Assembly: GCA_002418835.1 (NCBI GenBank)
Contig: DIEX01000011.1
Coordinates: 40,435 to 104,434, forward strand
Direction: 5' to 3'
Length of the DNA stretch: 64,000 bases
From: Spirochaetia bacterium UBA5763
Lineage (GTDB): Bacteria; Spirochaetota; UBA4802; UBA5550
A program made the position numbers and the translations under genes. Of the stretch, positions 52,224 to 62,436 are shown in pieces. The notes below the pieces were generated by a model. It saw nothing but the letters and a program-made list of their open reading frames with translations. It made no database searches and was not told the DNA's origin. The first letter of the stretch is position 1, and the number at the start of each line of letters is the position of its first letter.

Positions 52224-53708
52224 ATGCAGGTATTCTGTTCAAATTGCAATACGGCCCATGAAGTGACACAGGATCAGGCAGGAGATAAAGAGCGATCTGT
52301 TATCCACTGCAGGCGGTGCGATAAAAATATCAAACTTCAGTTCTGCCCCCACTGCGGCTCATTCTACTCTATAACTTTCGCCAACATTAAAAACGGAAGG
52401 TACAGATACAGATGCCGTAAATGCATGAAAGACTTTGCCATAGAGTTTACCGGGGCGAAACCGGATATCCATGTGCTCACAAGGACTACGCATGAGGGAT
52501 CATCGCAGGTAATCAATACGGAACAATCGGCCGGGTTATCCAGGACTGTTCAGTCACCACTCCGGGTTGAAACTTCACAGACAATACAGGCACCGGCAAA
52601 TGTCGTTCATGAAGAACAGGCAGAGAAGTCTCAGGCCGTTTCTGCTGAAAAAATTGATGTGGCAAGTTTTATCAGCAACAGCATCAACTCATTCAGCATC
52701 AATGAGCTCTTTGCAGCTGCTGCAGGAGCATTCTCGTTTAACAGGCTTCTTGTTGCATCCGGTGGTGTTGTAATGATGCTTCTCCTCATGGCAATTTTTA
52801 ACAAAGTTGAGACTTTGTGGTTCAGCGGAGGAACCGCTTTATATCCTTTTGTCGGTTCAATTATTGCACTACTCCCTCTTGCCATAATCTTTTCATTATA
52901 TACCGCGACTGCGGCAATAATTTCACGCATAACACTTGATATAATCTTTCACAACAAATCTCCGGAATGGGATGATATTATAAGGTTTTCATTCAAAACA
53001 GCCCCTGCGGTTTTTATGGGAAATATTGCAGTGCTTCTTGCAGTCAGCGCTCTCCTTGTTCTTTTCGGCAGAATACCGCTGCTTGGGCCGATTATCTTTT
53101 CACTGATATTCCTCCCCGTCTATATCGCGGGAATTATAATCACACTGTTATGCGTAATCGGAATCTGGTTCTATCCGCCAATATCAGCACACAGGGAAGG
53201 GGGGATTTTCGGAAACATGAAAAACCTTATGCTTTTCATTAAGAAGCATAATCTGGCCATGCTATATATGATACCGGTAATCATACTTGTTTCAATAATC
53301 ACTCTAACTGCAATATTTCTTATACATACAGCAGCATTCTCTTTTACAATTTCACTTTCTCAATGGCTCCTGGGTAATGACGCCGGAGGTGTATTCGCAT
53401 CAATTCCAGCGTCCTTTATAAAAGCATCAGAATCAACAATCAGCGGACTCGGGAACGGACTCTTCAGGCAGCTCTCTATCAATCTCGGCATGACCCATCA
53501 TGTCAGCGGATTTATACTGGGAGCAATCATGATGTTCATAACGACACTGCTTCTCTCGATAGCTGTATCAGTAACCGCGACAGTCTCATCTCATATCTAT
53601 ATAGTAATGGAGAGGGGCCTTACAATTGACGACAAAAAGAAAGGTGCAGTTTTCCTGATTCTGACATTAATGCTGTCAGTTATGCTGCTGCTGAAAAAGC
53701 TTATATAA
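52224..53708 (+). CDS. Zinc-ribbon (MJ0042-like CxxC x4) N-terminal domain fused to a polytopic membrane domain; hypothetical
   Basis: CSNC..CRRC..CPHC..CRKC in the first 75 aa, a low-complexity linker, then ~8 TM helices. Confidence 0.5.
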   Translation: MQVFCSNCNTAHEVTQDQAGDKERSVIHCRRCDKNIKLQFCPHCGSFYSITFANIKNGRYRYRCRKCMKDFAIEFTGAKPDIHVLTRTTHEGSSQVINTEQSAGLSRTVQSPLRVETSQTIQAPANVVHEEQAEKSQAVSAEKIDVASFISNSINSFSINELFAAAAGAFSFNRLLVASGGVVMMLLLMAIFNKVETLWFSGGTALYPFVGSIIALLPLAIIFSLYTATAAIISRITLDIIFHNKSPEWDDIIRFSFKTAPAVFMGNIAVLLAVSALLVLFGRIPLLGPIIFSLIFLPVYIAGIIITLLCVIGIWFYPPISAHREGGIFGNMKNLMLFIKKHNLAMLYMIPVIILVSIITLTAIFLIHTAAFSFTISLSQWLLGNDAGGVFASIPASFIKASESTISGLGNGLFRQLSINLGMTHHVSGFILGAIMMFITTLLLSIAVSVTATVSSHIYIVMERGLTIDDKKKGAVFLILTLMLSVMLLLKKLI

Positions 53709-53720
53709 GCCGGCAGCAGC

Positions 53721-54056
53721 TTAACCCTTTACAAGCACATTGAAAAGCTTTACATCAGTTACTGCTTCTACTCCGTAGCTGATACCCGATTCAAGTGCCG
53801 TCATCTCCCCCTGCCTCAGAATAATCTCTTCATCTTCTCCGTATAGAATTTTAACTATACCTTCAATAACGAAGAAGAGAGTTTCCATTATGTAGTACTC
53901 CTTATCAATACTTTCACCTTCAGCAAAAGAGAAAAAACGTATCTCTGTGTTTTCACTATCAATAAGTGCTTTACTGGCAATTTTGTTTCCAGTGTGCTTT
54001 ACTATGTCAGCCATAACAACAGGCTCATAGGGCCTGATATTTTTCAGATATCTCAT
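53721..54056 (-). CDS. Cupin-domain protein
   Basis: 111 aa small beta-barrel (cupin_2-like) with G..H..E-type motifs. Confidence 0.55.
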   Translation of the reverse strand: MRYLKNIRPYEPVVMADIVKHTGNKIASKALIDSENTEIRFFSFAEGESIDKEYYIMETLFFVIEGIVKILYGEDEEIILRQGEMTALESGISYGVEAVTDVKLFNVLVKG

Positions 54057-54058
54057 CT

Positions 54059-54397
54059 CTATTCCTCTTTCACAACAATAAGAAGCATCTTCATATCCTC
54101 TTTTGCTGTAACCTGATGCGGAATATTTGCAGGCATAACCACTATCTGCCCTTTTGATGCTTCCATTACCATGTCTCCAACCTTAACTGTTGCAATCCCC
54201 TGATGTATATATATGAGGGCGTCACCTTTTGCCGAGTGTGGCCCTACACCTTCACCTTTACCAAAGGCAAGCGCAGTAAGGCCGACACCTTTCTTCTGTG
54301 TCATAGTCACAGTTTCGATCTGCCCTTCCTGACAGTTTACAAGGCTGTCAAAATCAATAACTTTTCCCTTTGCGATATTTTTAATTAATTCCTGCAT
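54059..54397 (-). CDS. Cupin-domain protein
   Basis: 112 aa with a [26 protein letters not shown] cupin_2 motif. Tandem with the previous cupin, 2 nt apart. Confidence 0.6.
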
Positions 54398-54560
54398 TGA
54401 GAATTCTCCTTTAGTTTAATAAGTTCAATATATCACATTAATTACCAATTAAAAATGACCTGGATCAATCTGCTCAATTTTTATTTTTTTTATTAACATG
54501 GGAACCTTTTTCACTTTTTACAGGTCTAACTCACATATAAGAAAATGGAGGAAATAACAA

Positions 54561-55193
54561 ATGAAACGTATAATGCTCACACTGCTGGCTCTTGCTATTC
54601 TGGCTGGAACCGGCTCATCGCTCTTTGCAAGGGGTATGGGGAATGGCGGAAACTCATGCTACGGCATGGGTATGAACGGCGGCCCCGGATATCACGGCTG
54701 GATGTTTGATGACCTGAAGCTCACAGAGGAACAGGAACTCAAAATCCATAAAATCAACAAAGAGTACGCAGACAAATTTTTTGAAGCCAGAAAGGATCGT
54801 GACACTCATTACAAGGTAATGGAGAGTCACAAAAAAGAGATCGAAAAAGTTCTGACAAAAGAACAGCTCGAAAAAGTAAAGGATTTTAAAGGCCCCCGTC
54901 AGGGGAAAGGAAAAGGTATGCGTCAGGGAAAAGGTGACGGCAAACCCGGCATGATGCATAACTACCTTGGCATTACAGATGAGCAGGCTGAAAAAATTCA
55001 TAAGCTCAACATGGATTTCCATGATAAAATGTTCAAAAGCAGAAGTAATGAGAAAGAAATGGAAAAACTTCGTGAAAACCATTTAAAAGAATTTAAAAAA
55101 GTTCTTACGAAAGAACAGCTCGAAAAATTTAACGGTTTTCAAAAACATCACAGAGGCATGGGTTTCGGGCCTGGATTCGGAGGGATGTGGTAA
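54561..55193 (+). CDS. Periplasmic LTXXQ-motif protein (CpxP/Spy/ZraP family) with an internal tandem duplication
   Basis: Signal peptide. Four LTxEQ motifs (LTEEQELKIHKIN, LTKEQLEKVKDF, ITDEQAEKIHKLN, LTKEQLEKFNGF). Gly/Met-rich ends. Confidence 0.6.
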   Translation: MKRIMLTLLALAILAGTGSSLFARGMGNGGNSCYGMGMNGGPGYHGWMFDDLKLTEEQELKIHKINKEYADKFFEARKDRDTHYKVMESHKKEIEKVLTKEQLEKVKDFKGPRQGKGKGMRQGKGDGKPGMMHNYLGITDEQAEKIHKLNMDFHDKMFKSRSNEKEMEKLRENHLKEFKKVLTKEQLEKFNGFQKHHRGMGFGPGFGGMW

Positions 55194-55257
55194 TCAACGG
55201 TTCTATTGGCGGCTCTTTTGCCGCCGGTAACCTTTATTTTATTGAGAGAGAATAATT

Positions 55258-55548
55258 ATGAAATATATCACAGCAATTATAATGATAACGGTACCCGCGG
55301 TATCAGCATTAGCCGGACCATATTACTGTTATACACCCTTTTATAACAGAGGAGGTGGAATTATGTGGTTAATTACAATTGCCCTTTTCGGATTCATTAT
55401 ATATCTTCTTTATAAGAACATCGCGAGAGCGGGGCGGAATAATTGTGATGATTCCCCTGATGTCATGAGTATTCTTAACAGACGGCTTGCAAAAGGGGAA
55501 ATATCTGAAGATGATTACGAAAGACTGAAGAGCAGAATTTCAGGTTAG
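55258..55548 (+). CDS. Small membrane protein with a C-terminal SHOCT domain
   Basis: 96 aa with two TM helices. C-terminus ILNRRLAKGEISEDDYERLKSRISG matches the SHOCT consensus. Confidence 0.55.
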   Translation: MKYITAIIMITVPAVSALAGPYYCYTPFYNRGGGIMWLITIALFGFIIYLLYKNIARAGRNNCDDSPDVMSILNRRLAKGEISEDDYERLKSRISG

Positions 55549-55563
55549 ATGGAGACCGGTGTT

Positions 55564-56112
55564 ATGAACAGCAGGATAATTATAATAATACTTTCAGTGA
55601 TAATAGCAGTACTTGTCACTGTAAACATAATGATGTTCAGAGATCACAGGGAACCGCAATTCATGCCCGGTCCCGGGGGCGGGCCGGAGTTTCTGGATGA
55701 GGGCCCCGGAATGAAAGGGAGACACCCCATGCCGGGAAACAGATACGGCAGAAATTTCTGCGGACCTGACTTCATGAGAGAAAAACTTAATCTAAGTGCT
55801 CAGCAGATTTCAACGATTGAAGAGCTCAACAGAAAGTTCGGAGAAGAAAATAAAATTTTATTCCGCGCCATGGAACCGGAGAAAGAAAGACTCAGAAGCA
55901 TTCTGCAGAAAAACGATAAACCTGATATAACAGAGGTGAAAAAGTCTCTTGAAAAAATGGCATCACTGAATGTCGAATTACAGATACTGAGAATAAAACA
56001 GGGGAGCGAAATAGACTCAATACTCTCGGCGGAGCAGAAAAAAATTCTTAAAAGCGAGAGAAACAGGTTCTTTGAAAAAATGCAGAGAGGGCGTGGCGGC
56101 AGAAATGAATGA
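55564..56112 (+). CDS. Membrane-anchored periplasmic Spy/CpxP-like helical protein
   Basis: N-terminal TM helix. Helical region (LNLSAQQISTIEELNRKF...LSAEQKKILKSERNRF) resembling LTXXQ chaperones. Start at MNSRIII (GGAG RBS). Confidence 0.45.
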   Translation: MNSRIIIIILSVIIAVLVTVNIMMFRDHREPQFMPGPGGGPEFLDEGPGMKGRHPMPGNRYGRNFCGPDFMREKLNLSAQQISTIEELNRKFGEENKILFRAMEPEKERLRSILQKNDKPDITEVKKSLEKMASLNVELQILRIKQGSEIDSILSAEQKKILKSERNRFFEKMQRGRGGRNE

Positions 56113-56608
56113 GCGTGAATTCGCTGATATAGTGGGGAGAACAAAAAAAGCAGTCCTCTCTGCCGTAGAAAAAAATCTTGCTTCCCGATTCTATCACTCC
56201 ATAGACGATGTTGTGCAGGAGACCTATATCCGGGCATACAGCAGCCTAACAAAAGGCAAATTCCGGGGTCAATCTTCAATCAATACATGGCTCTACAGTA
56301 TTGCACGGAACGAATCCCTGCGTATGAACGAAAAACTTTTACGGGAGGAGCGGAAGGAGAAGAAGCTGATCGATGCTGATGATTTAACTGTAAATTACGA
56401 AGACGACAGCATCGCACTTCTGCAGGAGAATATACTGAAACTTCCCGAAAAGTACGGGGCAGTGTTATCGCTGGTTTCACTTGGATACAGCCTTAACCAG
56501 ATTTCCGAAAAGCTCGGGTTAAATACAGGTACTGTAAAGTCAAGAATATCAAGGGGTAAAAAAATTTTACACGATAATATGAAAGGGGGGAAAGATGCAG
56601 GACTATAA
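56105..56608 (+). CDS. ECF-type RNA polymerase sigma factor
   Basis: Region 2 (DDVVQETYIRAY...INTWLYSIARNE) and region 4 HTH (LSLVSLGYSLNQISEKLGLNTGTVKSRISRG). Start at MNEREF. Confidence 0.8.
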   Translation: MNEREFADIVGRTKKAVLSAVEKNLASRFYHSIDDVVQETYIRAYSSLTKGKFRGQSSINTWLYSIARNESLRMNEKLLREERKEKKLIDADDLTVNYEDDSIALLQENILKLPEKYGAVLSLVSLGYSLNQISEKLGLNTGTVKSRISRGKKILHDNMKGGKDAGL

Positions 56609-56915
56609 AACAAAAATGGATGAAGAGATCAGTCTCAGGCTGGAGAGCGATTCATGGAATCTCTCAATAGCCGGCAGGGTATTGTCTGAAAAGAATGCCC
56701 GTAAAGAGAAGACTATATTCAGAAGCTATATAACTTCTCTCGCTGCGGCATCGGTTTTCCTTGTGCTTTTTATTTTCAATGTCTACAGCTATTTCAGCAC
56801 AGGCACAGATGCATCTTCATATAATTCGTATCTTTACAGCTACAGCAGCGATTCGGACTCAATAAATACCGAGGAGACAGATCTTATAATAAATGAGGCG
56901 TTTCCTATGAGATAG
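56595..56915 (+). CDS. Putative single-pass anti-sigma factor
   Basis: 106 aa with one TM helix. 14 nt overlap with the sigma gene (translational coupling). No diagnostic motif. Confidence 0.45.
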   Translation: MQDYKTKMDEEISLRLESDSWNLSIAGRVLSEKNARKEKTIFRSYITSLAAASVFLVLFIFNVYSYFSTGTDASSYNSYLYSYSSDSDSINTEETDLIINEAFPMR

Positions 56916-57196
56916 CGCGTTCAAGGGTTCTGCATGAATCGCATGATTCTGAGCCCTGAAAGCCGCTTAAATTTATGTAGGTTCTGAGAGAAAACTCCTC
57001 CCTTTTCCCGATATTCCACTGGTTAACCGGCCTGAAATAACCTGAAACTCTTGAAAAAACTTCAGCAGGAACAACAATCTTTTTATTCATATTACCCCCT
57101 GTCAGATTACTCCGGATTATGGCTAATGAGACATAATATGTCAAGGATTAATAACATTAATAGAGCTGAAAAATTGATTAATTCCGGTATACTTAT

Positions 57197-59452
57197 TTAC
57201 TCAACAGCCGGGAGGTATATATGGAAAACAGTTCCTCTCCCCTGCTCTGACTCTACCTCAATCAGGCCTTCATGCCTTGTTATAATTGTATTAACAATGG
57301 CAAGCCCAAGGCCGTTCCCCTCTTTTTTTGTTGTAAAGAAAGGATCAAAAATAGTCTCCAGGTGTTCTTTGTCAATACCGGGGCCATTATCACGTACAGA
57401 TAAACGCCAGATATATCCTTCCGGAGAAGTGAGAGGTTTATCCCCTGTTTCTGTTTTTTCAAGTTTTAGTTCAATTTTTCCCGGCACATCTAACCTCTGA
57501 TTATCCTGCTTTATAGCCTCAGCGGCATTGACTATAAGATTAAGAATAACCTGCTCAAGCTGTGTGCGATCTCCAAATACATATGAATTACCACTGCCGG
57601 CATCAAATGTACATTCAACGTCCTTAATTGTTGCTGCCGCCAGACCTGACACTTCAGAGATAATAGTCCCCAGGTCAACTTTTACATGTTCAAACCTGCT
57701 GCCTTTTGAAAATGACATGAGGTTTTTCACAAGCCCGGCAGCCTTCTCACCAGATGTCCTGATGATATTCAGATGAGACTGTATCTCATTTATGCCGGTT
57801 TCACCTCCGCTTTTCAATATTACATCGAGATAAGAGGCTGTACTTACTATTCCTGATATTATATTGTTGAAGTCATGTGCAAGCCCTCCGGCCATTGTAC
57901 CCAGGGCTTCAGCTTTTCTGGCCCTGTCAAGCTGCTCCTCTTTTTTCGCGAGCTCAGTAACATCATCAATTCTAAGTATAACGCCTGTTATCTGCTCTTT
58001 ACTGAAGGGGAAAATGTAAATGTTCTTAACATAAACATCCTCCCTCCCGTTTCTTTCAACGATAAAGTTTTCACCGTAAAGTTCGGCTTTAATCCTCTTC
58101 TGACGCACATCTTCACATTTTGCCCTGTATTTATAAAGCTGAGGTATGGCATCCCATAAAGTCAGCCCTGTCGCCTCTGATGATGAAAGACCTGAAATTT
58201 TTTCAGTTTCCCTGTTCCACTGAATAATTCTGTCTTTGTCATTAATCGAAATGAGGGCTGATGGCATAGAATCAATTATATCATTTACGAAAGCTGTTAT
58301 CTCGCGCAGCTGTTCATTGGTTCTGTTTATTTCACCTGTTCTCTGCTGAATAGTTCTGGTCATCATGTTGATATTTGATGTTATATCAGAAATTTCATCG
58401 CCATAATTATCATCTATTGCTATACTATAATCGCCGTTTTTTATCCTCTTAAGGCTTTCAATAATATTATGAATCCGTTTGATGAACATATCATTCATCT
58501 TCATTGTCGATATCAGGAAAATGACCGCAGTGATTATTATACAGGAGAAGAGTGAGTATAAAATTATTCTTCGCATATACTGTGAAAGTATTGAAACATC
58601 ATAAACAAGCTCCGCATAAACAGGCGTTGTGCGGTTGAACATATACTTATTCATTTTTATCTTGTGGTAAACACTGATCCTGTTCTCCTTTTCCACGACT
58701 GCTTCCCCTTGCGTGGTAATAGTTCTGACAAGATCTTTGTCAAGTTCAAGCTTCTTCCCCGAATTAATCAGAGACCAGCTGACACCCCCGGCAATTGAGT
58801 ATATATCGATAGATATAAGATATTCGTTATAAAAATTTTTAAACATATCACTGAAGAGGAATTCATAAAGGGCAAAATTGTATTTTTCATTAACAAAGCT
58901 CTGCACATCCATTGACACTTCATAGATAATTCTGCTCCCCCTGGGGGAAAAATACATATAATGATTAATCTTCCCTTCTTTAATTGATACAGAAATCCCC
59001 TGTGAAATAATCTCGCTGCGTCCGTATATTGAACTAATGTAGCGTGTGAATGAAGGGCTGATATTCATAAGATTGAGCCCGATCTCAGATTTCAGTGATG
59101 AGTTAAAAACGCTCCCCTCTGAATTAATGAAGTAGATATCACCCACTCCATATCTTTTGGCCATTGATTTAAGTGTAACAGGGGAGACCTTCCCGGCTGA
59201 TCCCGCATTGCTGATATCTCTATGAATTGAGTAAAGGGCTTTTCTCCCTGTACTGTCCATCTGTTCTTCTATTGAATGGAGAATACTCTGGTACTGTTCC
59301 AGCTGTTTTTCAATGCGTATGATCTTCTCTTCCCTGTTTTCACGGAGAACCGTCTTTACGAAATCATACGAGAACCGTCCTATGATAATGGATATCACAG
59401 CAGCAGTTATTACTATAACTGCCAGAAGCAGTTGAAAGAGCCTTTTTCGCAT
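57197..59452 (-). CDS. Sensor histidine kinase (periplasmic sensor domain, HAMP, PAS, HisKA, HATPase)
   Basis: 751 aa. H-box GGLAHDFNNIISGI, G-box GNGLGLA. Two TM helices flank a ~270 aa extracytoplasmic domain. No receiver domain. Confidence 0.85.
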   Translation of the reverse strand: MRKRLFQLLLAVIVITAAVISIIIGRFSYDFVKTVLRENREEKIIRIEKQLEQYQSILHSIEEQMDSTGRKALYSIHRDISNAGSAGKVSPVTLKSMAKRYGVGDIYFINSEGSVFNSSLKSEIGLNLMNISPSFTRYISSIYGRSEIISQGISVSIKEGKINHYMYFSPRGSRIIYEVSMDVQSFVNEKYNFALYEFLFSDMFKNFYNEYLISIDIYSIAGGVSWSLINSGKKLELDKDLVRTITTQGEAVVEKENRISVYHKIKMNKYMFNRTTPVYAELVYDVSILSQYMRRIILYSLFSCIIITAVIFLISTMKMNDMFIKRIHNIIESLKRIKNGDYSIAIDDNYGDEISDITSNINMMTRTIQQRTGEINRTNEQLREITAFVNDIIDSMPSALISINDKDRIIQWNRETEKISGLSSSEATGLTLWDAIPQLYKYRAKCEDVRQKRIKAELYGENFIVERNGREDVYVKNIYIFPFSKEQITGVILRIDDVTELAKKEEQLDRARKAEALGTMAGGLAHDFNNIISGIVSTASYLDVILKSGGETGINEIQSHLNIIRTSGEKAAGLVKNLMSFSKGSRFEHVKVDLGTIISEVSGLAAATIKDVECTFDAGSGNSYVFGDRTQLEQVILNLIVNAAEAIKQDNQRLDVPGKIELKLEKTETGDKPLTSPEGYIWRLSVRDNGPGIDKEHLETIFDPFFTTKKEGNGLGLAIVNTIITRHEGLIEVESEQGRGTVFHIYLPAVE

Positions 59453-59607: not shown

Positions 59608-62436
59608 TTAAAAATCGTTCCTGGCAATAACTACAGATGAGTTAATCAGGCTTACCTTGTATTTTATGCCGCAGTAATCACGGTGTTCTTTAAGGAGAGA
59701 TTCCATTTCTGTGCGGGCTTTGAGTATTTTGTTTCTGATACGGGTGATTACGCTTCTCATATCCTTGCCGTACCACTTCATCTGGCTTTCATGCAGGTCG
59801 AGTTTCTCTTCAAGTTCTTTGATCTGCTTTGTGTAAGATTCTTTGATCTTTTCTATTTCAGGATCTATCTGTATATCAATATTTTCATTAAGGTCAAAAA
59901 GTCTGTCATTGATACGTTCCATGATCTTTACCCTGGCAGCATCGAAACAGCATGATACGTTACACCTCACATTCTCAATTGCACCATAATGTTCAGACAG
60001 AGGGATATTGTGCATAAAATCATGATCCATAAACTGCTCTTCAATTCTCTTAACTTCATACTCAGAAAGTACCGACCCCTTTTCAACAAGTACCGGAAAA
60101 AACTGATGTGTAACTGAAGCTGAAGTAAATTCGACAAGGTAGTTAAAAATCATTCCATCAAAAGGTGTATCGCTCTTCATGAAAATCACACCGGACTCAC
60201 CTCCGAAACAGTCGCTGTTGCAGTAATCGATGATCCTGTCAACTGTGCTGTGCCCGAAAGCCAGAAACTCAAGGCTTTCGTCCTCCAGCGCCCTCTCGCT
60301 GTCAAATGTGCCGTATCTGATCTGGGAGTCATCACCTGAACCGGAGAAGACCCTGTAAAGTCCCGCTCTGCTGTTTTTCTTTGAAATCAGACCCTGCGCA
60401 TAAGAATCCTCATCCATGAAATCACTTATAAATTTTTCAATCCGCCGGTTTGTGAAACTGCGATCTTTCAGGGTAACCTTGTAGTAGTCATCATAATTAA
60501 AATCCATACGCCCTGCCACAGTCAGTTCAGAAAGTTTTTCAAAGCTCTGCCGCGCGTTCTCTATTCTGTCAGAGAGCTCAGACTCAACATCCTTCTTCTT
60601 CTTTCTTCCGGTGGCAAGTTCCATGAAAAGTGTATTAAGATTAACCTCATCTTCAATCTGACCCAGCATAATGTCAGGTGTGCCTATGGACTCCTCAAAT
60701 ATCTTAAGCTTCTCAGTGAGTACTTCAAGTACACGCTCCGCCACAGTCCCCCGTGTAGAGAAGTTATATATATGCACATCATTGGGCTGTCCGAATCTGT
60801 GAATACGGCCGATCCTCTGTTCTATCTTCAGCGGTGACCACGGCAAATCATAATTTATGAGAATGTCGCAGAACTGCATATTGCGCCCCTCTCCGCCCGC
60901 CTCTGTCGCTATTATGATCTCCACTTCATTCTTGAATTTGAGTATTGCCTCCTCCTTCTCGTCCCTGTTCATTGAGCCGTTAAAAGCGACCCTGCTGAAT
61001 CCGGAAAGAATGTCCATGAGGTAATCCTGTGTAGTCCTGAACTGCGTGAAAATCAGAAACTTTTCGTGCCCCTTTTTCTTTAAATCTTTTATGAGCCTTA
61101 CAAGCTTTTCACCCTTTTTGTTCGATTCGATCTGCGATGCGAGATTAACAAGCCGGTCGATAGTGAGTATCTCCAGCCTCAGTTCATCAATTGTCTTTTT
61201 AACAGTGAGTTCCGCATTCTCATCAAGTTCTTCAAGCTCAGATAATGTTTCATTATCAAAGCATCCGGTATTGAATTCCACGTATGCATTATTCAGAGAC
61301 TCGGCTTTAACCAGAAGATCTTTCAGCCGCGCAGACCTGTTCCTCAGTGCAACTAACAGAGCGTATGACGAAGAATCCAGGAGTTTCTGGAAAACAGTCA
61401 TTACAAATCCCACGGCACGGTTCTCAGACTGAAGAGCGCGGTTAAACTCCTCTGCCACGTATTTAGTTGTCTCGTCATAGAGGAACCGCTCGTCATCATA
61501 GAGATCAAACCTGATGGTGCGGGCATGGCGTTTTGTAAATCCTCCGACCTCGTTCTTGGTACGGCGGATTACAACCTGGTCCAGTTTTCTTTTAAGTTCA
61601 GAGAGGTCTGCTCCGTCAAGACAGAACTGGTTGTAGAATGACTGGTACGGCCCAAGTATATTTTTATCAACGAGTGCAATGAGATAGTAAAGTTCTTCAA
61701 GCTTTCCGCGGAAAGGGGTCGCCGAAAGAAGGAGGAGCGACTTTGTCCTGACCGCCACCTGCTCCGCCATACTGTATGCCAGTGTTGAACTGTTGGCGTC
61801 TCTCCTGAGCCTGTGTGCCTCATCAAAAATAACAAAGTCCCATGAGCAGTGAAGCAGATCCTCCTGGAAGTCCTTCCCCTTAATAAAGTCAAGAGAACAG
61901 ATCAGACGATCGTATACCTTCCAGGGATTCCCCCCTTCACCGGCAATCTGCGAAGCCTTCTTCAGAAGCTTCCTGTCCATGATTATAAATTTCTCGTTGA
62001 ATTTGCTCTCCATCTCATTCTGCCACTGGAAAAGCAGCGACGCAGGACAGATGATTATTATCCTTTTATAATTCTGCCTGTAGATCATCTCCTTGATCAC
62101 AAGACCCGCTTCAATAGTTTTACCAAGCCCCACCTCATCAGCAATGAGAAATCTCTGCTTGAATGAATTTACAATCCTGTGTGTGCTCTCCACCTGATGC
62201 GCTAAAATCCGGGTCCTGGAATTTGATAAAGAGAGTATTTTATTGTATGCATATGCAAGTTTTAATATAAATGACTCTGCTTTAAGTATAAACCTCCTGC
62301 CATGCGGCAACGGAGAGCTCTCGAAAAGTTCTCTGATGCGCCCCTCATTTTGTATGATCACCTCACCCGCCGGAATATTTTCATCCGGTTGATAAGTAAA
62401 GAGATCTGGCAGGATTAAATCCGCTTCAGTATTCAT
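59608..62436 (-). CDS. SNF2-family ATPase, RapA/HepA-like (RNA polymerase-associated remodeller-like)
   Basis: 942 aa. Motif I LIADEVGLGKTIEAG, DEAH-box (IFDEAHRL), helicase-C (LPWSPLKIEQRIGRIHRFGQ), and a ~330 aa C-terminal domain of unknown type. Confidence 0.75.
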   Translation of the reverse strand: MNTEADLILPDLFTYQPDENIPAGEVIIQNEGRIRELFESSPLPHGRRFILKAESFILKLAYAYNKILSLSNSRTRILAHQVESTHRIVNSFKQRFLIADEVGLGKTIEAGLVIKEMIYRQNYKRIIIICPASLLFQWQNEMESKFNEKFIIMDRKLLKKASQIAGEGGNPWKVYDRLICSLDFIKGKDFQEDLLHCSWDFVIFDEAHRLRRDANSSTLAYSMAEQVAVRTKSLLLLSATPFRGKLEELYYLIALVDKNILGPYQSFYNQFCLDGADLSELKRKLDQVVIRRTKNEVGGFTKRHARTIRFDLYDDERFLYDETTKYVAEEFNRALQSENRAVGFVMTVFQKLLDSSSYALLVALRNRSARLKDLLVKAESLNNAYVEFNTGCFDNETLSELEELDENAELTVKKTIDELRLEILTIDRLVNLASQIESNKKGEKLVRLIKDLKKKGHEKFLIFTQFRTTQDYLMDILSGFSRVAFNGSMNRDEKEEAILKFKNEVEIIIATEAGGEGRNMQFCDILINYDLPWSPLKIEQRIGRIHRFGQPNDVHIYNFSTRGTVAERVLEVLTEKLKIFEESIGTPDIMLGQIEDEVNLNTLFMELATGRKKKKDVESELSDRIENARQSFEKLSELTVAGRMDFNYDDYYKVTLKDRSFTNRRIEKFISDFMDEDSYAQGLISKKNSRAGLYRVFSGSGDDSQIRYGTFDSERALEDESLEFLAFGHSTVDRIIDYCNSDCFGGESGVIFMKSDTPFDGMIFNYLVEFTSASVTHQFFPVLVEKGSVLSEYEVKRIEEQFMDHDFMHNIPLSEHYGAIENVRCNVSCCFDAARVKIMERINDRLFDLNENIDIQIDPEIEKIKESYTKQIKELEEKLDLHESQMKWYGKDMRSVITRIRNKILKARTEMESLLKEHRDYCGIKYKVSLINSSVVIARNDF

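Follow-up and report, generated by a model that had tools for sequence, protein, structure and literature searches.

Five co-directional genes lie on the + strand of the 64-kb window of an uncultured spirochaete (the whole stretch of DNA that was analysed) and encode, in order, a secreted tandem LTXXQ protein (g1), a small SHOCT membrane protein (g2), a membrane-anchored periplasmic LTXXQ protein (g3), an ECF sigma factor (g4) and a putative single-pass anti-sigma factor (g5). All five open reading frames listed in an earlier, sequence-only reading of this DNA were found, the LTXXQ, SHOCT and ECF sigma domains that it named were confirmed by Pfam and NCBIfam scores above cut-off, and its view of the locus as an envelope-stress-type module is supported. 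Its description of the gaps between the genes as tiny or overlapping is accurate for the g3/g4/g5 junctions, where the start of the sigma gene overlaps the g3 stop by 8 nt and g5 overlaps the sigma stop by 14 nt, and inaccurate for the g1–g2 gap, which is 64 nt long and contains a hairpin. Two of its gene starts were also replaced. For the sigma gene it had used position 56072; the ATG at 56105 is most likely the correct start, and the 167-aa protein that begins there is on record with 100% identity. For g3 the most likely start is 55564 (182 aa), which is used by gene callers and is common to the homologues. The alternative start at 55549 gives 187 aa, and since an exact look-up found no record of this longer form and did find the 182-aa form, the upstream start was dropped. 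The neighbours of the module are genes for PBP1A, a zinc-ribbon membrane protein, two cupins, a small NrdD-like gene, a histidine kinase and an SNF2 helicase.

The first gene, g1 (54561..55193, + strand), encodes a Spy/ZraP-like protein of 210 aa with a signal peptide, which scores above cut-off with Pfam Metal_resist (30.9 bits, cut-off 29.2) and LTXXQ (28.6 bits, cut-off 24.3) and gives a partial Spy match in NCBIfam; a single-sequence PDB search with g1 returned noise only. Part of its sequence is duplicated in tandem (47% identity over 68 aa, E = 2e-17), and there are segments rich in Gly, Met, Cys and His at the N-terminus, in the linker and at the C-terminus, and its Gly/Met/His-rich tails presumably recall those of ZraP. 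The gene is present in 11 loci, each time as the first gene after the promoter described below, and its product is probably an abundant periplasmic effector. Between g1 and g2 a terminator scan located a GC-rich stem-loop (55204..55229, + strand) with a T-rich tract downstream of it. Every locus with g1 has a strong hairpin in this position; its sequence differs among the loci and a U-tract follows it in only some. The hairpin may be a partial terminator or may serve to stabilise the mRNA. No sigma-70 promoter that could serve basal expression of the sigma gene was found on the + strand between g1 and g2.

The second gene, g2 (55258..55548, + strand), encodes 96 aa and carries a C-terminal SHOCT domain (PF09851; residues 71-94, E = 9.4e-7, 28.8 bits, cut-off 27). 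Its predicted order is a signal/TM segment, a short Gly/Tyr/Cys-rich loop, a TM helix and the SHOCT domain, which would be cytoplasmic. This gene was found only in the window and in four related loci (L003, L008, L009 and L013).

The gene directly upstream of the sigma gene, g3 (55564..56112, + strand), encodes a protein of 182 aa with an N-terminal TM helix and a Pfam LTXXQ match of 34.2 bits (cut-off 24.3). Its two motifs read LNLSAQQ and ILSAEQ, and the Gln of both is invariant in the family, in which no other residue is. In the AlphaFold model, residues 2-26 form a TM helix and residues 79-177 a hairpin domain of three helices; the mean pLDDT is 69, with values of ~80-89 in the folded domain. 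When this model was compared with the PDB by Foldseek the top 36 matches were all ZraP, CpxP, Spy, CnrX or STV (target TM-scores 0.57-0.84). A single-sequence PDB search with g3 gave only noise and a family profile was needed; that profile matched STV (2e-13), Spy (2e-11), ZraP (3e-6) and CpxP (1.5e-5), and Pfam Metal_resist (PF13801) matches 38 of 42 family members. As modelled, then, g3 has the Spy/CpxP/ZraP/CnrX fold and is a member of the LTXXQ/CpxP-Spy-ZraP superfamily (PF07813, PF13801), with predicted export and a putative chaperone or modulator activity. The means of anchoring varies over the family, from a TM helix to a lipobox or a cleavable signal peptide.

In the CnrYXH system of Cupriavidus metallidurans, CnrX binds metal through His42, His46, Glu63 and His119, plus Met123 (PMC6851896). 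If g3 acted in the same way it would bind a particular metal ion, such as Ni, Co, Zn or Cu, and the sigma factor thus freed would turn on metal resistance. The three-part layout shared with CnrYXH (PMC6851896), the Metal_resist matches across the family and the Gly/Met/His/Cys-rich segments in g1, g3 and the g2 loop are consistent with such a role. The CnrX site itself is absent from g3, since the folded domain of the window protein has no His and the two LTXXQ Gln are the only family-invariant residues, leaving no invariant His, Glu or Met; because of this absence we rank metal-specific sensing low. Moreover, the g3 family profile does not match CnrX at E ≤ 1, the family as a whole does not keep the Met/His/Cys-rich segment, and the module has no genes for efflux or metal resistance beside it, either in the window or in the other loci examined. 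Taken with the points in its favour, these observations make a CnrX-like metal sensor improbable.

The sigma factor gene, g4 (56105..56608, + strand), encodes 167 aa that match PF04542 (Sigma70_r2, 32.6 bits), PF08281 (r4_2, 39 bits) and TIGR02937 (62.8 bits, cut-off 42.9). The protein has the sigma2 and sigma4 domains only, as expected of an ECF (group 4) sigma-70 factor, and its best PDB matches are SigW, SigE and RpoE. Homologues occur in Spirochaetota, among them six genomes of cultured Leptospira, from five named species, and one Turneriella MAG; the identity of g4 to the Leptospira members is no more than 45-50%. The last gene, g5 (56595..56915, + strand), encodes a protein of 106 aa. 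Its cytoplasmic helix (~44 aa) leads into a TM helix, after which comes a periplasmic tail of ~40 aa with a conserved short helix at its end; the AlphaFold model of g5 shows helices at 2-75 and 92-102. A one-TM protein is encoded at this +1 position in 53 of 61 related loci, and in every member the TM helix lies at ~45-63. All members of the family have R15 and W21, and the C-terminus carries a conserved D..I....R motif. Searches of Pfam and the PDB with the g5 family gave no family match, and a test against CnrY (PF17524) matched one of 37 members, at E = 0.048, too little to place the family there. That g5 matches no anti-sigma family counts against our preferred reading (below). Its features are those of the generic single-pass anti-sigma layout (a gene overlapping that of the sigma factor, a cytoplasmic N-terminus, one TM helix and an extracytoplasmic C-terminus), and from its minimal size and topology we infer that g5 is an anti-sigma factor, with sigma binding putative.

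An ECF-type promoter, GGAACC-N17-GTCTAA, lies at 54501..54529 on the + strand (-35 at 54501-54506, -10 at 54524-54529), 60 nt upstream of the g1 ATG. It is the single match in the 64-kb window, where 0.03 would be expected, and 43 of 52 related loci carry a looser form of the motif in the corresponding position, against an expectation of 0.0055 per 160 nt. The strict motif has 32 matches over the window and all loci, every one of them upstream of an LTXXQ–sigma cluster and on the strand of that cluster; in the related loci it stands only upstream of the first LTXXQ gene, with zero matches elsewhere in the window or those loci and none upstream of the kinase. The search that the sequence-only reading had proposed, upstream of 54561 and beyond, found, in the window and the related loci, a conserved ECF-type promoter before the first LTXXQ gene, and with it regulon prediction becomes possible in any spirochaete genome.

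Because this promoter is upstream of the LTXXQ genes, they are products of sigma activity, and they are at least members of a sigma-driven operon, that is, outputs of it. They may be nothing else: g1, g3 and the SHOCT protein could all be effectors of the regulon, as periplasmic chaperones or membrane protectants, with the anti-sigma factor sensing the signal alone or through proteolysis. The closeness of the g3 profile to STV and the chaperone Spy and the variation in anchoring type agree with this as well as does the promoter, and it weighs against our preferred reading that a pure effector would be just as likely to be encoded first in an operon that depends on the sigma factor. The arrangement of the genes argues the other way. 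The gene for g3 or its counterpart is at -1 to the sigma gene in nearly every locus, with stop and start codons that often overlap, and it is retained beside the sigma gene even where the extra soluble paralogue g1 exists; in addition, its relatives CpxP, ZraP and CnrX double as signalling modulators (for CnrX, PMC6851896). On balance it appears unlikely that the LTXXQ proteins are effectors only.

The trio of LTXXQ protein, ECF sigma factor and one-TM anti-sigma factor is syntenic in 53 of the 61 related loci, which come from several phyla (among them are Spirochaetota MAGs, Leptospira, Turneriella and Firestonebacteria) and have sigma factors of 37-92% identity; 20 more distant loci, which belong to other ECF groups, lack the trio. 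The possibility that orthologues of these genes are never syntenic in other genomes, which had been named as fatal to a functional module, is contradicted at these 53 loci. Since the arrangement recurs in dozens of species, it is not due to chance. The stop of the g3 gene overlaps the sigma start or lies ≤30 nt from it in 43 of 54 loci, and in 48 of 52 the g5 gene begins before the sigma gene ends. This synteny and tight packing, with the conserved promoter, bear out the earlier proposal that the LTXXQ proteins are tied functionally to the sigma/anti-sigma pair. No further gene was found to be conserved beside the trio family-wide in the loci compared, which makes the LTXXQ protein the one constant partner, and the SHOCT gene (g2) and the tandem LTXXQ gene (g1) are clade-specific additions. 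The kept -1 position and the frequent overlap of stop and start codons suggest that g3 is co-produced stoichiometrically with the regulators.

A gene for a 751-aa histidine kinase with two TM helices and HAMP, PAS, HisKA and HATPase domains (57197-59452) lies ~280 nt downstream on the opposite strand. The sequence-only reading had it converging on the 3' end of the module; its strand and downstream position are correct, and a minus-strand gene of 61 aa (56905-57090), which overlaps the end of g5 and has a promoter-like site of its own, stands between the two. Were the LTXXQ proteins to modulate this kinase in the manner of CpxP with CpxA or ZraP with ZraS, a two-component system would be linked to the ECF pair, and in the closest clade (L003, L005, L008, L009 and L012) this multi-domain kinase does keep its position. 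It is absent from that position at most trio-bearing loci, the intervening small gene is a separate one, no response regulator is adjacent (the next gene is that of the SNF2 helicase) and no copy of the promoter motif precedes the kinase gene, so such a role is very improbable. The wiring typical of ZraPSR and CpxPAR, with an LTXXQ gene, a cognate kinase and a response regulator, was not found here. The link between kinase and module is weak, and with the kinase on the other strand, a gene between and no response regulator we rejected it as a part of the module as unsupported.

We therefore favour, with a probability of about 0.55, the reading that the locus is an autoregulated ECF sigma/anti-sigma operon of a spirochaete ECF208-like family in which a periplasmic protein with the Spy/CpxP/ZraP fold is a fixed third component. 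At rest, the short N-terminal helix of g5 would keep the sigma factor g4 at the membrane. A periplasmic disturbance, likely unfolded envelope proteins and/or soft-metal stress, would free g4 from g5, and free g4 would then transcribe from the GGAACC-N17-GTCTAA promoter. This promoter would drive first g1, a secreted chaperone or buffer, which we propose is made in excess because the hairpin follows its gene, and read-through would give g2 and g3 and then the sigma/anti-sigma pair. Made together with the regulators and inserted in the same membrane, g3 would most likely bind the conserved periplasmic tail of g5 and set its stability or conformation, and client proteins or metal could titrate g3 away, giving Cpx-like or Cnr-like sensing together with negative feedback. 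That an LTXXQ protein feeds a signal into the anti-sigma factor is suggested by the tight packing of the genes and by analogy. Two further points count against this autoregulated three-component operon: the anchoring of g3 varies across the family, so that a freely diffusing chaperone fits as well as a fixed co-receptor, and if the hairpin after g1 is a full terminator, g2 to g5 are left with no recognised promoter.

A stronger form of the same idea would be that throughout the ECF family, including ECF208 of pathogenic Leptospira, a minimal anti-sigma factor always needs a Spy/CpxP-like chaperone, rather than a metal sensor, as its periplasmic co-receptor, and that unfolded envelope proteins set the activity of the sigma factor by titrating this chaperone. 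This is a tentative proposal, with the odds somewhat against it. If it were true, Cpx-style sensing would operate on an ECF switch, and the picture of ECF208 as partner-less and non-autoregulated would be wrong. The mechanism outlined above, if true, would widen the CnrX paradigm, in which a helical-hairpin protein of the periplasm controls an ECF anti-sigma factor, from one metal-specific case to a chaperone-type sensor across Spirochaetota, and would supply the uncharacterised ECF208 group with a testable model consisting of the promoter motif GGAACC-N15/16-GTCT(A/T)A, a -1 partner gene and a +1 anti-sigma factor.

How does this module compare with systems already described? ECF208 (Casas-Pastor et al. 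2021) is a Leptospira/Turneriella group that includes L. interrogans LIC_10559 and LIC_13285, and its description gives a +1 single-TM putative anti-sigma factor with no Pfam domain. By its homologues in these genera and this published description, the sigma family of the window appears to match ECF208, and it shares with that group the +1 single-TM protein of no Pfam family. The context given for subgroup ECF208s2 (DUF218 at -2, group-1 glycosyltransferases and DNA ligase) is matched by the L. ainazelensis locus (L062), which has DUF218 at -2, Glycos_transf_1 and an NAD-dependent DNA ligase; the window itself does not match it. The family differs from the description in that a -1 LTXXQ gene and a promoter are conserved here, neither of which appears in the published text, and the clade of the window has in addition the tandem LTXXQ gene and the SHOCT gene. 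That the same text gives no conserved promoter and calls the group "likely not autoregulated" counts against the autoregulated reading. The family does occur in Leptospira, where its LTXXQ partner and promoter are previously undescribed. The promoter of L. interrogans SigX (LIMLP_03680), TGA/GCAC-N15/16-TCGTT, is unlike GGAACC-N17-GTCTAA, and SigX is probably a different ECF factor from the Leptospira homologues of g4.

LTXXQ or heavy-metal-resistance (PF13801) proteins are recorded in the conserved neighbourhoods of ECF03s10, ECF111, ECF241 and ECF281. The promoter found here resembles the motifs reported for ECF111 and ECF281, and that of ECF111, TTGAACCT...GTCTAAA, is nearly identical to it. 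In these groups the LTXXQ gene either follows the anti-sigma gene, at +2, or forms a fusion with the anti-sigma factor (ECF241), whereas in the present module it stands at -1 and opens the operon, and the phyla differ.

CpxP, ZraP and Spy belong to the same superfamily as g3 and have the same two LTXXQ motifs and helical hairpin. All three are stress-induced periplasmic outputs, and CpxP and ZraP also act as feedback modulators, a logic that the module described here would share. Unlike the module described here, CpxP with CpxAR, ZraP with ZraSR and Spy in Enterobacteria are wired to two-component systems and not to an ECF sigma/anti-sigma pair, and these proteins are soluble rather than membrane-anchored and are encoded outside the operon of the regulator.

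The closest characterised parallel is CnrYXH of the ECF20/ECF281 lineage, a three-part ECF system in which CnrX and CnrY control CnrH (PMC6851896). Both systems have an ECF sigma factor, a short single-pass anti-sigma factor (here in a putative role) and a membrane-anchored helical-hairpin protein of the CnrX/CpxP/Spy type, and CnrYXH is autoregulated from a GGAAC...GTCTAA-type promoter like the one found here. The differences are that the gene order is X-H-Y here and Y-X-H there, that g3 has no His3Glu(+Met) metal site and groups by sequence profile with Spy, CpxP, ZraP and STV rather than with CnrX, that g5 is not a member of the Pfam CnrY family, that the window has no adjacent cnrCBA/cnrT-like efflux system, and that the lineage is spirochaete here and betaproteobacterial there. 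The sequence-only reading had seen in the module a hybrid circuit; with the CnrYXH precedent for a membrane-anchored sensor of the same fold (PMC6851896), and with LTXXQ or heavy-metal-resistance neighbours recorded for other ECF groups, such a hybrid is nothing new, and the module is an ordinary type of ECF stress circuit.

The module consists, as the sequence-only reading had it, of five plus-strand ORFs at 54561–56915, and family scans bear out the LTXXQ, SHOCT and ECF sigma domains assigned to them. The first gene, g1 (54561–55193), encodes a 210-aa protein with a signal peptide that passes the Pfam cut-offs of both Metal_resist (30.9 bits; cut-off 29.2) and LTXXQ (28.6 bits; cut-off 24.3). 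Its sequence is duplicated internally in tandem (the copies share 47% identity over 68 aa, E 2e-17), and each repeat is flanked by Gly/Met/Cys/His-rich segments. The second, g2 (55258–55548; 96 aa), has a C-terminal SHOCT domain (28.8 bits; cut-off 27). SHOCT is bi-helical, is predicted to lie inside the cell close to the membrane, and recurs in envelope-stress neighbourhoods (PMC11237479); a role in oligomerisation was tested and found unsupported (PMC3581485). The third, g3, is the expected second LTXXQ gene (34.2 bits; Pfam cut-off 24.3), but its start most likely moves from 55549 to 55564, which shortens the product from 187 to 182 aa, with the LTXXQ region following a very hydrophobic N-terminal helix. 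An ECF sigma gene (g4; TIGR02937, 62.8 bits; cut-off 42.9) is likewise present with a corrected start, most likely the ATG at 56105; the 167-aa protein read from there has a 100% identity match on record, and this start overlaps the g3 stop within ATGAATGA. The tiny or overlapping gaps attributed to the module are thus real between g3 and g4, but g1 and g2 are separated by a 64-nt spacer containing a GC-rich hairpin and its T-rich tail (55204–55229). The last plus-strand gene, g5, encodes a putative anti-sigma of 106 aa that has a single TM helix and no family match in Pfam or the PDB, and its database homologues are all unnamed or "hypothetical" and lack a Pfam domain. Members of the g5 family have invariant R15 and W21 within a cytoplasmic helix of ~40 residues, followed by a single TM helix and a periplasmic tail with a conserved D..I....R motif at its end; the predicted model comprises a long helix (2–75) and a short one (92–102).

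An AlphaFold model of g3 made from 20 sequences (mean pLDDT 69; ~80–89 in the folded domain) displays a TM helix (2–26), a disordered segment rich in Gly, Pro, Met and His, and a three-helix hairpin domain (79–177); in a Foldseek search of the PDB, each of its 36 best matches is ZraP, CpxP, Spy, STV or CnrX. The profile of the 42-member g3 family matches STV (2e-13), Spy (2e-11), ZraP (3e-6) and CpxP (1.5e-5) and does not reach CnrX at E ≤ 1. Metal_resist is found in 38 and LTXXQ in 32 of these 42 proteins, and the two LTXXQ glutamines are their only invariant residues. Because the folded domain of the window g3 contains no histidine, the His3Glu(+Met) metal site that is a feature of CnrX (PMC6851896) is, judged by sequence, missing from it; a Cnr-like metal-specific sensor, which the CnrX hits among the fold matches would suit, is a less likely reading of this protein. 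Anchoring varies within the family: the window protein has a TM helix, Leptospira homologues a lipobox, and others a cleavable signal peptide. Six Leptospira homologues (loci L029, L033, L035, L045, L051 and L053) have a lipobox (e.g., LLAGGC, LTQGC) followed by His-rich residues, and the LTXXQ protein encoded at −1 to the sigma gene is there probably a lipoprotein, unlike the TM-anchored g3 of the window.

A sigma alignment scan of one genome per species gave 80 loci, whose six-frame ORFs were labelled by using each window protein as the query of an iterative profile search. The orthologues are syntenic: the g3-type LTXXQ, sigma and g5 genes (the trio) are intact in 53 of 61 non-redundant loci with sigma identities of 37–92%, and the partners are present in none of the 20 loci where sigma identity is ≤34% (other ECF groups). 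A Turneriella MAG (L064) retains the LTXXQ–sigma pair, with no g5 homologue detected at that locus by the profile search, and most other exceptions are contigs that end within the cluster. The g3 stop overlaps or lies ≤30 nt from the sigma start in 43/54 loci, and g5 overlaps the sigma gene in 48/52. The association of LTXXQ and sigma genes is therefore real and widely conserved. An identical sigma gene in the same gene order occurs on contigs from two metagenomes, and, among genomes, the nearest are MAGs of uncultured Spirochaetota/Spirochaetia (sigma identity 90–92%). The trio is carried by many Spirochaetota and Leptospirales MAGs, by cultured Leptospira alstonii, L. borgpetersenii, L. ainazelensis (at two paralogous loci), L. 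sarikeiensis and L. haakeii, and by Candidatus Firestonebacteria and two Deltaproteobacteria MAGs. Extra g1-like LTXXQ genes, single or tandem, occur at 11 loci and a SHOCT gene at 5. This is a small sigma family: at E ≤ 1e-30 it forms 97 clusters of 50% identity among 1.84 billion representatives. One database protein (P0171, 338 aa) has its sigma domain at residues 170–334 and may represent the −1 LTXXQ protein fused to sigma, or a miscalled overlap.

The promoter-motif search proposed for the region upstream of 54561 found GGAACCTTTTTCACTTTTTACAGGTCTAA at 54501–54529, 60 nt upstream of g1, an RpoE-type motif and the sole match in the window to GGAAC-N17/18-GTCTWA (0.03 expected). The shorter GGAAC-N17/18-GTC is present at 43 of 52 related loci within −130 to +30 of the first LTXXQ ORF (chance expectation 0.0055 per 160 nt), before g1 where that gene is present and otherwise before g3. 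All 32 occurrences of the strict GGAACY-N16/17-GTCTWA in the window and all loci lie upstream of an LTXXQ–sigma cluster on the cluster strand, with 0 elsewhere on either strand. Near-matching motifs are reported for ECF111 (TTGAACCT...GTCTAAA) and ECF281 (GGAACTT...GTCTAA) in a preprint supplement (Casas-Pastor et al. 2021). An A often precedes the −35 element, yielding ATGGAACC (L005, L010, L013, L014, L037, L038, L047 and others), and mechanical ORF calls that begin at its ATG give the first LTXXQ protein a false "MEPF..." extension of ~20 residues. Every locus with g1 has a strong hairpin after that gene, with a sequence that differs between loci and a U-tract in some only; it might be a partial terminator or stabiliser that allows an excess of g1 over the regulators. 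The operon looks autoregulated, with the LTXXQ genes as its first products, because the conserved ECF-type promoter precedes the first of them. Such an order would also suit the main rival reading, that the LTXXQ proteins are outputs only; CpxP, ZraP and CnrX sense or feed back in their own systems.

A 751-aa histidine kinase (57197–59452, minus strand; two TM helices, HAMP, PAS, HisKA, HATPase) had been thought to converge on the 3' end of the module, but a separate 61-aa minus-strand gene (56905–57090) stands between it and g5, convergent with g5 and overlapping its 3' end by 11 nt. This small gene has a sigma-70-like promoter (57144–57116, minus strand; 11/12 match), and its product matches only the last ~30 residues of the anaerobic ribonucleotide reductase NrdD, the glycyl-radical end (RVSGYF; Pfam NRDD E 5e-6, NCBIfam NrdD models up to 2.6e-6); a stand-alone "spare-part" glycyl-radical peptide is one possibility. 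Its position is kept in L003, L005, L008, L009, L010, L012 and L015, and both it and the kinase are confined to the closest clade. The ~270-residue periplasmic domain of the kinase has no Pfam hit, and no response regulator adjoins the gene, its next neighbour being a SNF2 helicase (59608–62436). A link of the module to this nearby kinase is poorly supported. On the other side lie a gene for a 494-aa protein (52224–53708, plus strand) with a polytopic membrane domain and, at its N-terminus, two zinc ribbons, and two tandem small cupin genes (53721–54397, minus strand) divergent from g1; conservation of these three genes is limited to the closest relatives (L001–L003).

The gene set, folds, synteny, tight packing and promoter conservation are established by the sequence data, and the trio and its promoter uphold the proposed tie between LTXXQ proteins and an ECF sigma. 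Most likely, the sigma factor would be sequestered at the membrane by g5 and released by periplasmic disturbance, and the freed sigma would transcribe its own operon; excess g1 would then serve as a periplasmic chaperone or buffer, and g3, co-produced with the regulators, would bind the conserved periplasmic end of g5 and modulate it. Binding of g3 to g5 would give sensing by titration and negative feedback. We infer the binding steps and the signal, as well as the direction of action, in which LTXXQ proteins would provide signal input to the anti-sigma.

The hybrid circuit that had been suggested is not of a new type, since CnrYXH is a precedent and LTXXQ neighbours are recorded for other ECF groups. 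In CnrYXH the membrane-anchored periplasmic sensor CnrX and the single-pass anti-sigma CnrY control the ECF sigma CnrH (PMC6851896). The three-part layout and sensor fold are common to both systems; however, the present module differs in gene order, has no nearby efflux genes, and includes a g5 outside the CnrY family and a g3 that lacks the CnrX metal site and is nearer in sequence to Spy, CpxP and ZraP. LTXXQ or heavy-metal-resistance neighbours are listed for ECF03s10, ECF111, ECF241 and ECF281 in the supplement of Casas-Pastor et al. (2021, preprint). L043 (5743–6207) and L046 (7017–7538) each have a further LTXXQ gene after the anti-sigma gene, the +2 arrangement reported for ECF111. In the same supplement, ECF208 is found in Leptospira and Turneriella alone and is accompanied at +1 by a single-TM anti-sigma that has no Pfam domain; the group is said to have no conserved promoter and to be "likely not autoregulated". 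The present sigma family fits ECF208 in its taxa, its +1 protein and the context of Leptospira locus L062 (DUF218 at −2, a group-1 glycosyltransferase and DNA ligase, as in ECF208s2), a provisional assignment made from these features. Two L. interrogans proteins, LIC_10559 and LIC_13285, belong to ECF208, and the function of both is uncharacterised (PMC12655853, PMC10144590). The account of ECF208 in that preprint supplement includes neither the −1 LTXXQ partner nor the conserved promoter. Useful by-products of this analysis for this uncharacterised ECF group, which has Leptospira pathogens among its members, are a promoter motif and a partner gene.
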